53,346 nt of DNA, from contig DAIDCO010000006.1 of the NCBI GenBank assembly GCA_027309555.1, forward strand, positions 1 to 53,346, in the 5' to 3' direction. The stretch's first letter is position 1. Each line of letters opens with the position of its first letter. The notes beneath the pieces are model-generated. The model ran no database searches and was not told the origin of the DNA. It worked only from the letters and a program-made list of their open reading frames with translations. This stretch comes from a bacterium. Its GTDB lineage: Archaea; Thermoplasmatota; Thermoplasmata; Lutacidiplasmatales; UBA184. Made by a program: the position numbers and the translations under genes. Shown in pieces: positions 44,811-48,309 of this stretch.

Positions 44811-44824
44811 GATAGGAACCTATC
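44811..44824. promoter_or_regulatory. perfect 14-bp palindrome GATAGGAACCTATC, candidate operator
   Basis: GATAGG-AA-CCTATC is exactly self-complementary. It sits between the divergent 80-aa ORF (ATG 44789) and the HTH regulator (ATG 44894), 21 nt upstream of the former. Confidence 0.5.
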
Positions 44825-44865
44825 GCCGAGCGCCGCGATTCGTTCCATTTGTTAATGAATCAGTG

Positions 44866-44872
44866 TATAAAT
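44866..44872 (+). promoter_or_regulatory. TATA box TATAAAT, 21 nt upstream of regulator ATG 44894
   Basis: A canonical-looking TATA in a GC-rich context. It supports trimming the regulator start. Confidence 0.5.
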
Positions 44873-44893: not shown

Positions 44894-45556
44894 ATGAGCG
44901 AACCGGCCGCACCGCCCCGGGAAAGCGGCTACTCGAGCCCGAAGCGCGGGATCCTCCGGTTTCTGAAAACGCAGTCGGACGCACCGCTCGAAGGGATCGC
45001 TCGGGCGCTCGGGATCTCGAAGGTCGCCGCGCTCGGGCATTTGAAGCGGCTCGAGGCAGATGGCCTGCTCGAGCGGTCGTACCGCGCGGGAAAGGTCGGC
45101 CGCCCACGTCTCTTCTTCCGGCTCGCGCCGGGCGCCGCCGCCCTCTTTCCCCACGGCTACACCGAGATGTCCCTCTGCGCGCTCGACTTCATCGAACGCC
45201 GCCTCGGCCGCACCGCGGTCCGGGAGCTCCTGAGCCAGCGCGCCGGCGAGGTCGCCGACCGCCACCATGCACGGATCCCCCCCGGCTCGCTCGCGGAGCG
45301 CGTCGGAGAGCTCGTCCAGATCCGGACCGAAGGGGGGTACATGGCCGAGATCGGGCCCCGACGGCGCGGCTCGGTCGAGATGGTCGAGCATAACTGCCCG
45401 ATCCTCGCGATCGCGGAGCGCTACCCCGAGGCGTGCGAGACGGAGCGGCGGATGTTCGAGTCGCTCCTCGGTGCGGAGGTCGATGTGGCGCATCGCGTCG
45501 TCGCGGGCGACCCGGTCTGCCGGTTCCTCGTGCGGGAGAAGCGAGCCCTCCCATGA
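44894..45556 (+). CDS. winged-HTH transcriptional regulator (ArsR/COG2345-like) with C-terminal Cys-containing sensor domain
   Basis: ORF 44849..45556 trimmed to ATG 44894, which lies 21 nt after TATAAAT. HTH region ILRFLKTQSDAPLEGIARALGISKVAALGHLKRLEADGLLER. C-terminal HNC-x12-C...C pattern. Confidence 0.8.
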   Translation: MSEPAAPPRESGYSSPKRGILRFLKTQSDAPLEGIARALGISKVAALGHLKRLEADGLLERSYRAGKVGRPRLFFRLAPGAAALFPHGYTEMSLCALDFIERRLGRTAVRELLSQRAGEVADRHHARIPPGSLAERVGELVQIRTEGGYMAEIGPRRRGSVEMVEHNCPILAIAERYPEACETERRMFESLLGAEVDVAHRVVAGDPVCRFLVREKRALP

Positions 45557-46290
45557 GCGCCGCCTCCGCTCACCGCCTCGCGCTGGTCACCGGGGCGAGC
45601 CGGGGCCTCGGCGCCACGGTGTCGCGGTTCCTCTCGGCGGAGGGGTTCGACCTGGTCCTCACCGCCCGGGGCCGTCCCGCCCTCGAGGCAGCGGCCTCCT
45701 CCCTCGCCTCGTTCGGAACGCGGATCGTGGCCGAGGCGGGGGATGTGAGCTCGCCCGCCCACCGACGGACGCTCGCCGAGCGCGTACGGGAGATGGGCCC
45801 GGGGCTCGACCTCCTCCTCAACAACGCGAGCGAACTCGGTCCCTCTCCGTTGCCTCCGCTCGCCGAGTACCGCCTTTCCGAGCTCGAGTCCGTCTTTCGG
45901 ACCAACGTCGTGGCTCCGCTCGGACTCGTCCAGGAGCTCCTTCCGAACCTCGCGCGGGGTCACGGGCTCGTGGTCAACATCTCGAGCGACGCCGCGCTCG
46001 CGGGCTACCCTGGCTGGGGGGGCTACGGCGCGAGCAAGGCCGCGCTCGACCTCGTCAGCCGGACGCTCGCCCGCGAGCTCGCCGACCGTCCGGTCGCGGT
46101 GGTCTCGGTCGACCCGGGAGACCTTCGGACCGCGATGCACCAGGCCGCGTATCCGGGCGAGGACATCTCCGACCGCCCGCTCCCGGAGGTCACGATCCCG
46201 TTCTGGGCGTGGCTCCTTCACCAGCCGAGAGCGGAGATCTCGGGCCAGCGCTTCCGCGCTCAGGCCGACCGGTGGGAGGTACCGGGATGA
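45553..46290 (+). CDS. short-chain dehydrogenase/reductase
   Basis: ATG 45553 overlaps the regulator stop (ATGA). Motifs LVTGASRGLG, NNAS, YGASKAAL. Confidence 0.85.
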   Translation: MSAASAHRLALVTGASRGLGATVSRFLSAEGFDLVLTARGRPALEAAASSLASFGTRIVAEAGDVSSPAHRRTLAERVREMGPGLDLLLNNASELGPSPLPPLAEYRLSELESVFRTNVVAPLGLVQELLPNLARGHGLVVNISSDAALAGYPGWGGYGASKAALDLVSRTLARELADRPVAVVSVDPGDLRTAMHQAAYPGEDISDRPLPEVTIPFWAWLLHQPRAEISGQRFRAQADRWEVPG

Positions 46291-47365
46291 AACCCGTATC
46301 GCTCGGATTCCCCGTCCCGAGGGCGCTCGGGGCCGACCGGACCCCCGAGGACCGGGGATGCCCGAGAGACGAAGTCCGGCTGCTCGTGAGCCGCCCCGAG
46401 GGAGATACCCATCATCGGTTCCTCGACCTGCCGACTCTCCTACGGCCCGGCGACCTCCTCGTGGTCAACGAGAGCGCGACGGTCCCCGCCAGTCTCGAAG
46501 CGCGGGGCGCCTTCGGGAGGTTCCGGGTGAGCCTCTCGACGGCCTACGGGCGCGGCCTCTGGCTGATCGAGCCCCGGAAAGGCTTCTCCGAGCCCGGGCC
46601 GCTTCCGCTCGCTCCCGGGGATCCCCTCGAGATCGGCGGAGTGGCGGGCCGGTACGTCGCGGATTTTCCGGGCATTCCGCGCCTTGGGTTCTTCCATGCC
46701 GAGGGCGACCTCGCGGCGTCGATGCGCGAGCGGGGACGGCCCATCCGGTACGGCTACCTGTCCCGGGAGTACCCGATCGAGGCGTACCAGACGCTCTTCG
46801 CACGGGTCCCGGGGAGCGCCGAGATGCCGAGCGCAGGCCGACCGTTCACCCCGCGCCTCCGGGAGGGACTTCGTCGTGCGGGGATCGACGTGGCCCCGAT
46901 CCTCCTCCACACCGGCGTCTCGAGCCTGGAGGCCCGCGACATCGCCCCGCTCACCGTACCGGTCTACCCCGAGCCGTTCGAGGTCCCGACCCGGACCGTG
47001 GAGGCCGTCCGGCGCGCCCGCGAGCGCGGCGCCCGCGTGGTCGGGGTCGGCACCACCGTCGTGCGCGCCCTCGAGTCGGCGACCGATGCGGGAGAGCTCC
47101 GGCCCGCGCGGGGCTTCACGCGGCTCTACGTCGGCCCCGCGACGGCCTCCTCACGGGTTTCCATGAGGCCGAATCGACCCATCTCGCGCTCCTCGCCGCG
47201 TTCGCGGGCCTACCGCGCCTGCGACGAGCGTATCGCACCGCGATCGACTCGGGGTATCTCTGGCACGAGTTCGGCGACAGCCACCTGCTCTGGCGCGACG
47301 GGGCGGACGGCCGGTCCGGCGGCGGAGGAGGCACGACGTCCGGCCGTGGGGGCGCGAGCGCCTAG
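46287..47365 (+). pseudogene. QueA-like S-adenosylmethionine ribosyltransferase-isomerase family gene, interrupted by a frameshift near 47136..47141
   Basis: ATG 46287 overlaps the SDR stop (ATGA). The N-terminal 283 aa are collinear with QueA (PGDLLVVNESATVPA, GVGTTVVRALESA) up to ...TRLYVGP. The conserved C-terminus DGLLTGFHEAESTHLALLAAFAG...GYLWHEFGDSHLL continues in the -1 frame (ORF 46358..47365). The original frame decays into R/S/P-rich nonsense. Confidence 0.75.
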
Positions 47366-47379
47366 GAGCCGACGCGAAC

Positions 47380-48309
47380 CTACTTCGCGGACCCGAGACC
47401 GGCCCGGCCCCGCAACGCGTGATAGAACCCGCCGAAGCTCGTGGCGGTCGGGGTGCGCAGGCCCTGGAGGCGCATCTGCTCCCGGACCTCTTTCGGGCTC
47501 TGCCGGAGGTCGAGCGTCTTCGTGGTGTCGAAACGGTACTGGAACGTGCCCGACGGGCCCCGGGGGAATGCCTCCCAGTCCTTCGCGGTCGTGGGACGGA
47601 GCTCGTGGAGCCGCTGGCCCTCGCGCGGCGCGAACGCCGGCAGGGTGAGGTGCTCCTCGGTGAGCCAGAGCATCGTCGCGTCGCGGATCGCCTGGCTCGT
47701 CGTCTCATCGAGCGCACCGGGGGCTACCTGCGACTGCACCCAGTCGACGAGCGCATCGAAGGTCTTCTCCGCGTTCTCCTCGAGCATCACGAGGACCGCG
47801 ACCCGGATCGCGCTGCGACGCAGCTGCTGGATCCCCGTGTCGCTCAAGCGGTACTCGACGCTGAGCCCAAGCAGGCTTTCCGCGTTGTCCCCGAGGTCCT
47901 TCAGCGGCAGCACGAAGAGCGGGACCGGCGCCTCGGTCTCCTGGATATACCACAACGAGAACTCACGGCCGTTCGTGATCAGGGCGAGCGGCACCTTGGC
48001 GGCCTTCGCGTGCTCCGCGACCTCACCGGCATCGGAGACGTTCCCGGTCCGCTCGCGGACATCGAGAAAGAGGCGGGGCTGGCCGTCCCCGTTGAGGAGG
48101 GCGTAGTCGACGTGACGGTCCGAGCCGCGCACGGGGAAGTCGAGGAATACCTGGCGCTTGTCGTGCGGGTCCCATCCGATCGCGACGAGGAACGGATTGA
48201 CGATCCAGTGACGGATCTGCTGTTCGGTGACATCCTCGACGTCCCGCAGGACCTCTCCCGCGACCTGCGAGAACTCGGTGAGCCGCCGGCTCAGATCGAC
48301 TGCTTCCAT
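47380..48309 (-). CDS. HsdR_N-like (type I restriction R-subunit N-terminal, PD-(D/E)xK-fold) domain protein with an uncharacterised C-terminal domain
   Basis: 309 aa. TEQQIRHWIVNPFLVAIGWDP...HVDYALLNGDGQPRLFLDVRE matches my recollection of the HsdR_N pattern, with D-V-R in place of E-x-K. ATG 48309 lies 26 nt after TTTTAAA. Confidence 0.55.
   Translation of the reverse strand: MEAVDLSRRLTEFSQVAGEVLRDVEDVTEQQIRHWIVNPFLVAIGWDPHDKRQVFLDFPVRGSDRHVDYALLNGDGQPRLFLDVRERTGNVSDAGEVAEHAKAAKVPLALITNGREFSLWYIQETEAPVPLFVLPLKDLGDNAESLLGLSVEYRLSDTGIQQLRRSAIRVAVLVMLEENAEKTFDALVDWVQSQVAPGALDETTSQAIRDATMLWLTEEHLTLPAFAPREGQRLHELRPTTAKDWEAFPRGPSGTFQYRFDTTKTLDLRQSPKEVREQMRLQGLRTPTATSFGGFYHALRGRAGLGSAK

Follow-up and report, generated by a model that had tools for sequence, protein, structure and literature searches.

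QueA (EC 2.4.99.17; PDB 1WDI, 1VKY, 1YY3) catalyses one of the oddest uses of SAM, in which ribose is turned into a carbocycle, and to our knowledge preQ1 in tRNA is so far its sole known substrate. The SoxR regulons of non-enteric bacteria comprise few genes, for oxidoreductases, monooxygenases and pumps; redox-cycling compounds induce them, and they deal with small redox-active molecules. Classical short-chain dehydrogenases/reductases (SDRs) act on small carbonyls or alcohols. SufR (M. tuberculosis, cyanobacteria) and ArnR (Corynebacterium), which are [4Fe-4S] regulators of COG2345, share an N-terminal wHTH, a GRP AT-hook and a C-terminal C-X12-C-X2-E-X24-C ligand spacing, and proteins of the SufR family bind A/T-rich DNA through this hook (bioRxiv 10.64898/2025.12.26.696629).

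Relatives of QueA, of the classical SDRs and of SufR meet in one operon of the window analysed here, a stretch of 53,346 nucleotides from a soil-type archaeon (MAG of 114 contigs, 90% complete). The archaeal character of the genome, part of the original prediction, is borne out by two TBP genes, by an archaeal TgtA as sole TGT and by closest homologues that carry the label Thermoplasmata archaeon. The operon consists of three genes on the + strand, and we could confirm from the sequence that they are chained by ATGA overlaps as predicted: a SufR-like regulator (44894..45556), a classical SDR (45553..46290) and a QueA-family gene that begins at 46287 and ends in a TAG stop at 47363-47365. The ATGA at 45553-45556 joins the regulator stop to the SDR start, and that at 46287-46290 the SDR stop to the QueA-like start. 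We think it probable that this is an autoregulated leaderless operon, induced by redox or Fe-S stress, in which a SufR-like repressor controls the SDR and a remodelled QueA using SAM on an acceptor other than preQ1-tRNA.

The resemblance of the QueA-like protein to QueA extends over its full length. It shares the two-domain fold, aligns end to end (E 1.7e-53 to T. thermophilus QueA) and is covered in full by PF02547, here in two frames; an AF2 model of the intact allele P0003 (pLDDT 90) gave structural matches only to 1wdi, 1vky and 1yy3, all of the QueA fold. Thirty-seven invariant positions are common to QueA-like and canonical proteins, among them R27, D56, N61, H208, E229, GTT..R..E, H299 and the C-terminal GD. 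Unlike canonical QueA, however, it reaches only about half of the equivalog cut-off scores and fails both (NF001140, 171.2 vs 324 bits; TIGR00113, 132.5 vs 267.45 bits). The SDR-linked QueA-like proteins form their own clade by FastTree (branch 0.85, support 100), which is recovered by IQ-TREE under LG+C20 (SH-aLRT 100), and 14 motif positions are switched between the two clades, each at least 90% conserved within either. The canonical motifs PLPPY, GSVAAPTAGLHF, TNFHLP and YRFxSYGD are not matched by the QueA-like protein; where canonical QueA has PLPPY, AAPTAGLHF, TNFH and YRFxSYGD, the QueA-like clade has PIRYGY, EMPSAGRPF, TGFH and YLWHEFGD, respectively. The WHEFGD-type end is the signature of the QueA-like clade, which includes many Actinomycetota, in keeping with the earlier suggestion that this C-terminus was of a divergent actinobacterial type. 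Judged by its sequence, the protein is not a canonical QueA; it grouped with canonical QueA in neither tree, which supports the prediction of a QueA paralog rather than a tRNA enzyme. The current annotation of all proteins of this clade as a tRNA enzyme is very probably wrong.

The distribution of queuosine and archaeosine genes points the same way. Our search of the archaeon's own genome (90% complete) identified only the archaeosine set, TgtA, QueC and ArcS, and did not find QueF, QueG, QueH or a Q-type Tgt, so the bacterial queuosine pathway is absent from this census, as had been proposed. Among 151 genomes of Actinomycetes, the QueA-like paralog is present in 44 (one of them, G524, an unpublished genome) and Tgt in 20, with an overlap of 0, although this 0 of 44 overstates the statistics because kin genomes are not independent. 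QueC was above the cut-off in none of the 151, with a model that also missed some control genomes, and a search of Nonomuraea, Amycolatopsis and Streptomyces isolates returned no TGT of any type. Conversely, five genomes of Deinococcota carry a canonical QueA and a copy from the QueA-like band side by side.

These data weigh against the reading in which the QueA-like protein is a true (epoxy)queuosine synthase acting on archaeal tRNA, with the SDR as a new epoxyqueuosine reductase in place of QueG/QueH. We know of no SDR chemistry that includes epoxide deoxygenation, and the genome lacks QueF and a Q-type Tgt, its sole TGT being the TgtA for position 15. The failed equivalog cut-offs, the separate clade, the switched motifs, the absence of Tgt and QueC from all 44 paralog-bearing Actinomycetes searched and the Deinococcota with both copies argue against it as well. 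In its favour are the full-length QueA fold with its strong match to the T. thermophilus enzyme, the occurrence of bacterial Q genes in some archaea (PMC8204110) and the absence of QueG and QueH, owing to which a replacement reductase would be needed. We rejected such a new reductase pathway and regard queuosine synthesis as extremely improbable here; the enzyme pair almost certainly serves a purpose other than queuosine synthesis.

The pairing with the SDR defines the clade. Of 80 loci, spread over about ten phyla, 78 have an orthologous SDR gene immediately before the QueA-like gene, as do 15 loci of Thermoplasmatota, and in two proteins, P0186 (589 aa) and P0222 (606 aa), the two are fused. 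With the regulator included, the triad occurs in 14 of the 16 archaeal main-clade loci with enough upstream sequence, so that the arrangement, whose conservation had been put forward as the point to survey, is found well beyond this genome. The SDR itself (245 aa vs about 250 expected; PF00106, adh_short, 4e-41) has the classical cofactor motif VTGASRGLG (TGxxxGxG), LLNNAS (NNAS), ISS and YGASK (S...YxxxK, the Ser-Tyr-Lys residues), with an Arg after strand 2, and is probably NADP(H)-dependent. Its matches in the PDB are only generic or uncharacterised SDRs, e.g. of the YciK type, and give no pointer to a substrate. Our literature search on QueA, QueA-like paralogs and archaea found no paper describing an SDR-linked QueA-like clade.

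The copy in the window carries a frame break. The N-terminal 284 codons (46287..47138, + strand), in the frame of the ATG at 46287 (to 47147), match PF02547 positions 6-268 (E 3e-45 to 1.5e-42), and the C-terminal 74 codons plus TAG (47141..47365, + strand), in another frame from 47141, match positions 273-322 (E 1.4e-14 to 2.7e-14); at 1079 nt, the length of 46287-47365 is not divisible by 3. Both parts are 100% identical to the intact allele P0003, the first to its residues 1-284 and the second to its C-terminus. The intact public alleles are 365 aa long, 7 residues more than this copy, and P0003 and P0123 have ERPV(R/L)AL between ...YVGP and DGLLTGFH...; 19 nt are thus missing in this assembly, where two bases (47139..47140, + strand) stand in place of 21. 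An exact-pattern scan of metagenome contigs for the break region, with 1-25 bases allowed at the break, gave no match. The deletion may have arisen very recently, as a lesion or a variant; otherwise it is an error of the assembly. It would be rather unlikely, in our view, that the locus is a dead relic, with the QueA-like gene a pseudogene and the operon without present function: the deletion does shift the frame after codon 284 and costs the translated product its conserved C-terminal quarter, but at least two other public contigs carry intact alleles to which both flanks are 100% identical in protein, neither the regulator nor the SDR is damaged and there is no second lesion, and the QueA-like family is overall intact and conserved. 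Such identity, together with a single lesion, suggests a very recent event, a variant within the population or a MAG assembly error.

The first gene encodes the regulator, a protein of 220 aa, and the earlier description of it as a COG2345-like HTH protein with a Cys-rich sensor tail holds: Pfam places its wHTH with MarR_2/HTH_24, the SufR model TIGR02702 matches it at positions 3-208 of 208, and the tail carries cysteines. It has an AT-hook of the GRP type, KVGRPR, and a C-terminal pattern, C-X12-C-X2-E-X24-C, with three Cys and a fourth metal ligand at the spacing of C179/C192/E195/C220 of Mtb SufR; NC-X12-C-E-T-E-X24-C is kept in 27 homologues. It is thus predicted to be a SufR-like [4Fe-4S]-type redox sensor. 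It differs from SufR proper in that it scores below the equivalog cut-off (104 vs 178.8 bits) and heads an SDR/QueA-like operon rather than a suf operon, its cluster and DNA binding being predictions. As in the SufR and ArnR systems, the archaeal operon is preceded by an A/T-rich promoter box. A TATA box, TATAAAT (44866..44872, + strand; read from the sequence), precedes the ATG at 44894 by about 25 nt, a distance that implies a leaderless transcript, and GTATAAA is kept upstream in related archaeal loci. About 10 nt upstream of it lies the box TTTGTTAAT (44848..44856, + strand), a candidate operator of the SufR-like regulator; a TTTGTnAA-type box stands at the same place before the regulator gene in the window and in 12 related archaeal loci (two of them from one genome), a count that covers loci with enough upstream sequence shown and leaves out L012 and L015, which have too little. 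Further upstream in the window there is a palindrome at 44811-44824. An archaeal COG2345 regulator unconnected with suf thereby gains a first candidate target operon.

In bacteria the pair is found next to other sensors. A SoxR with the CIGCGCLSLxxC motif is encoded divergently upstream of the pair in 9 bacterial loci, and in 8 of these 9 a SoxR box (TTGAC, palindrome, long spacer) lies between soxR and the pair, as in non-enteric SoxR regulons, which the archaeal copy departs from in having a SufR-like sensor. Near the pair in about 21 loci are a GAF-HisKA_3 kinase and a NarL-type regulator. Going by their protein motifs, the regulators adjoining the pair are redox sensors, of the SufR-like [4Fe-4S] type in archaea, SoxR in bacteria, and GAF kinases. 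Our literature search found no paper on a SoxR regulon that lists a QueA-family gene.

The mechanism we favour would run as follows. The SufR-like [4Fe-4S]-type repressor would autoregulate the operon, and redox or Fe-S stress would switch on the expression of two cooperating enzymes, an NADP(H)-type SDR and a remodelled member of the QueA family. The latter would most likely still bind SAM and run QueA-type chemistry, in which adenine and methionine are lost and the ribosyl carbons are transferred and isomerised, but the nucleophile would be neither preQ1 in tRNA nor any 7-deazaguanine; the SDR would add a redox step with NADPH just before or after. The use of SAM and a carbocyclic or epoxide product are suggested by the retained QueA fold and the 37 invariant positions, which are consistent with the earlier idea that SAM is turned into a carbocyclic product on an acceptor other than tRNA, and we infer that this acceptor is a small molecule. 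It is unlikely that the enzyme instead modifies under stress a macromolecule other than preQ1-tRNA, be it a base in another RNA or in DNA, or an amine or thiol group of a protein. It descends from an enzyme that acts on tRNA, and it has kept the barrel domain and several conserved arginines (R27, R250 and R260), but the canonical R336 is lost, the obligate coupling or fusion is with a classical SDR of 245 aa, from a class of small-substrate enzymes, and the pair belongs to SoxR regulons, which handle small redox-active molecules.

A further reading is that the pair is part of a natural-product cluster making a cyclopentane-type metabolite, given that SAM is turned into a carbocycle by QueA (PMC9092360) and that many of the carriers are actinomycetes. 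We rejected this reading, which we hold to be very improbable: biosynthetic neighbours are not conserved and the flanks vary by lineage, the adjoining regulators are stress sensors rather than pathway-specific activators, and the two genes stand as a unit of their own in species-representative genomes, bacterial and archaeal, from about ten phyla (at least 584 stretches), small archaeal genomes included. More tentatively, we speculate that the pair is a new stress-defence chemistry of bacteria and archaea under the control of Fe-S redox sensors, SufR-like and SoxR. An epoxy-cyclopentane unit derived from the ribose of SAM might be grafted onto a redox-active small molecule, which would disarm it, or a cyclopentane reductone-type protectant might be made; by either route, if true, a QueA-type reaction would for the first time be at work outside tRNA. 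With the same fold, the coupling or fusion to an SDR and the presence in genomes without Tgt or QueC, a second, non-tRNA use of QueA chemistry becomes directly testable, and the link to SufR-like and SoxR regulators tells experimenters under which condition to induce it.

When the genes around the pair were clustered, no consistently linked accessory gene that would name the acceptor was found; the only groups were lineage-specific, encoding for example an ABC ATPase, SerB, an acyl-CoA ligase, a biotin carboxylase, DUF2332, LysE and a lipoate ligase. A defence system was rejected, PADLOC having given no defence-system link. The plasmid search yielded a Nonomuraea entry of chromosome size and a single canonical queA. 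Longer fused forms are combinations with the SDR and with response regulators only, and in high-GC DNA some of them may have arisen from read-through in gene calling.

The three genes of the operon, all on the forward strand, encode a 220-aa regulator (Pfam wHTH; ATG 44894 to TGA 45554-45556), a 245-aa SDR (Pfam adh_short, 4e-41; ATG 45553 to TGA 46288-46290) and a member of the QueA family (Pfam Queuosine_synth, PF02547; ATG 46287 to TAG 47363-47365). An ATGA overlap is present at each of the two junctions, and the predicted three-gene chain is thus borne out by the sequence, the gene identities being supported by Pfam. A TATA box (TATAAAT, 44866-44872, + strand) lies about 25 nt 5' of the regulator's ATG, and this spacing is consistent with a leaderless archaeal transcript of the operon. 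Located 5' of this promoter is a perfect 14-bp palindrome, GATAGGAACCTATC (44811-44824), a near-identical version of which, GATAGGAAACTATC, occupies the same place in the related Thermoplasmata locus L041; it may serve as a further operator or be part of the divergent 80-aa ORF. Directly 3' of the operon is a convergent HsdR_N-like gene (47380-48309, - strand), of which a homologue of about 315 aa (PF13588 at 5.8e-5, under the Pfam cut-off) is found on the opposite strand, 3' of the QueA-like gene, in 6 related archaeal loci. This syntenic gene is probably just a conserved neighbour.

The QueA-like stretch of the window (46287-47365, 1079 nt) has a broken frame, PF02547 positions 6-268 being in frame with ATG 46287 as far as 47147, and positions 273-322 in another frame from 47141. 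Two intact 365-aa alleles, P0003 and P0123, exist in the protein database (NCBI contigs of 53,167 and 131,590 nt); both are 100% identical to the two window pieces and carry 7 additional residues, ERPV(R/L)AL, where these pieces meet. The intact alleles need 21 bases at this point and the window has 2, so that 19 nt are missing. As there is no other lesion in the window's gene, the gap either arose very recently, is a variant within the population or stems from faulty assembly; the source is a MAG of 114 contigs, and a pattern scan of metagenome contigs for intact DNA at the break gave no match. Residues 344-365 of P0003 (window 47297-47362) form a tail, about 21 residues long and rich in Gly, Ser and Arg, that is missing from the 344-aa homologues and modelled with low confidence (pLDDT of about 50).

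The source genome is archaeal: it has two TBP genes, and its close homologues are labelled Thermoplasmata archaeon. Its one TGT is TgtA (TIGR00432, 427 bits for a cut-off of 350; Q-type model, 108 bits for a cut-off of 306.75), and together with QueC and ArcS/DUF5591, also present, this is an ordinary archaeosine set. QueF, QueG and QueH were not found in this 90% complete MAG, in which the QueA-like gene is the sole PF02547 match. The genome thus appears to be without preQ1 synthesis, a position-34 insertion enzyme and epoxyqueuosine reductase, and the census agrees with the original prediction that a bacterial queuosine pathway is lacking.

The prediction of a paralog distinct from canonical QueA is upheld by both equivalog scores and phylogeny. 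P0003 falls below the cut-offs of NF001140 (171 bits vs 324) and TIGR00113 (132 vs 267). With phmmer, 809 clusters were retrieved at E < 1e-30 from 1.84 billion representatives, and a scan of species-representative genomes with clade-specific peptide patterns gave confirmed stretches, at least 584 in number. The 80 best of them come from Thermoplasmata and Bathyarchaeota among the archaea, and from Chloroflexota, Deinococcota, Actinomycetota, Acidobacteriota, Dormibacterota, Vulcanimicrobiota, Bacillota, Gemmatimonadota and one alphaproteobacterium among the bacteria; 78 of the 80 loci have an orthologous SDR directly 5' and in the same orientation. A QueA homologue of some kind occurs in 93 of 401 genomes from the window's phylum and adjoins an SDR in the 7 closest and 8 more distant class-level loci, and SDR-QueA-like fusions also exist (P0186, 589 aa; P0222, 606 aa). 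Every SDR-linked protein in our trees belongs to a single clade (FastTree branch 0.85, support 100; IQ-TREE LG+C20, SH-aLRT 100); the QueA proteins of E. coli and Deinococcota fall outside it, as do 14 QueA homologues of Thermoplasmatota that have no SDR. Archaeal and bacterial members are intermixed within the clade, which suggests gene transfer between soil archaea and bacteria. The SDR-less archaeal homologues (L022-L031 and L033-L036, from genomes G016, G036, G050, G055, G086, G089, G096, G131, G156, G208, G259, G298, G358 and G365) lie near canonical QueA in the tree, and some of these genomes are small, complete and from the window's class. Several actinomycete loci (L059, L076, L080 and L093, from Streptosporangiaceae and relatives) have a gene of the ACT-ACT-HAD phosphoserine-phosphatase type directly 3' of the QueA-like gene and co-oriented with it, most likely as lineage synteny and not as a functional link.

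The SDR-linked enzyme very probably does not serve queuosine synthesis. It is the sole PF02547 member in Nonomuraea glycinis, Amycolatopsis rifamycinica and one Streptomyces isolate, all three of which lack a TGT of any type. As kin genomes are not independent, the following figures are counts and not statistics: among 151 Actinomycetes genomes of at least 90% completeness, PF02547 is matched in 44, always in a low band (175-257 bits) and never canonical, 20 have a Q-type Tgt, none of them among the 44 (the result is unchanged without G524, an unpublished genome among these carriers), and none of the 151 has QueC above the cut-off; in Deinococcota, scores are 342-451 bits for canonical QueA (377-451 for full-length matches) and 232-266 bits for a second band, with both bands in 5 genomes and the second only in 4. 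True bacterial queuosine genes (QueA, QueH, Tgt) have been reported by Castelle et al. in DPANN and Methanosarcinales (PMC8204110), a situation different from that of the SDR-linked clade, of which we found no description in the literature.

The only matches to the AF2 model of P0003 (pLDDT 90) are the three solved structures of QueA, with which the sequence aligns end to end. When 88 main-clade sequences were compared with 45 of canonical type (those of E. coli and Deinococcota, plus the SDR-less homologues of Thermoplasmatota), the same residue was at least 90% conserved in both sets at 37 positions, and 14 positions were conserved within each clade yet different between them (P0003 numbering, main clade/canonical: T65/V, I153/P, Y155/P, E179/A, M180/A, S182/T, R185/L, P186/H, S213/T, G297/N, H305/L, L331/R, W332/F and E334/S). 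These switches affect the best-conserved motifs of QueA and bring in charged or acid-base residues, a pattern which suggests that the core reaction may be retained with a rebuilt acceptor site. QueA is the closest known enzyme, and several of its defining membership features fail here.

The window's regulator matches the SufR model over its full length, under the cut-off, and has a GRP AT-hook and a tail reading N-C, 12 residues, C-E-T-E, 24 residues, C. This C-X12-C-X2-E-X24-C spacing is that of the [4Fe-4S] ligands of M. tuberculosis SufR (C179, C192, E195 and C220; bioRxiv 10.64898/2025.12.26.696629); non-SufR members of COG2345 are widespread, Thermoplasmata included, with known targets mostly lacking (same source). 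The predicted triad does recur: the regulator is 5' and co-oriented in 14 of the 16 archaeal main-clade loci with sufficient upstream sequence, whose promoters have in common a TTTGTnAA box directly 5' of the TATA box. Other sensors take its place in bacteria. A divergent SoxR (CIGCGCLSLxxC motif) lies 5' of the pair in 9 of the 80 loci, 8 of them with a SoxR-type promoter in the spacer (such as TTGACT with the palindrome TTAAAGTTAACTTTAA after it); a GAF-HisKA_3 kinase and a NarL-type regulator are near the pair in about 21 loci, and a MarR adjoins the Nocardia copy. Redox or Fe-S control of the operon is the reading that we moderately favour.

Loss or oxidation of the regulator's putative cluster would then derepress the operon, the QueA-like enzyme would act with SAM on a nucleophile other than preQ1-tRNA or any 7-deazaguanine, and the SDR would, with NADPH, ready that nucleophile or rework the product. 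The acceptor is somewhat more likely to be a small molecule than a macromolecule; that the product is a SAM-derived carbocycle is a more tentative proposal. In a Trueperaceae genome, the pair is followed by two VOC/glyoxalase genes. The VOC fold is one of those known to open epoxides (FosA/FosX), and its presence beside the pair would fit, if weakly, an epoxide product of the QueA type.
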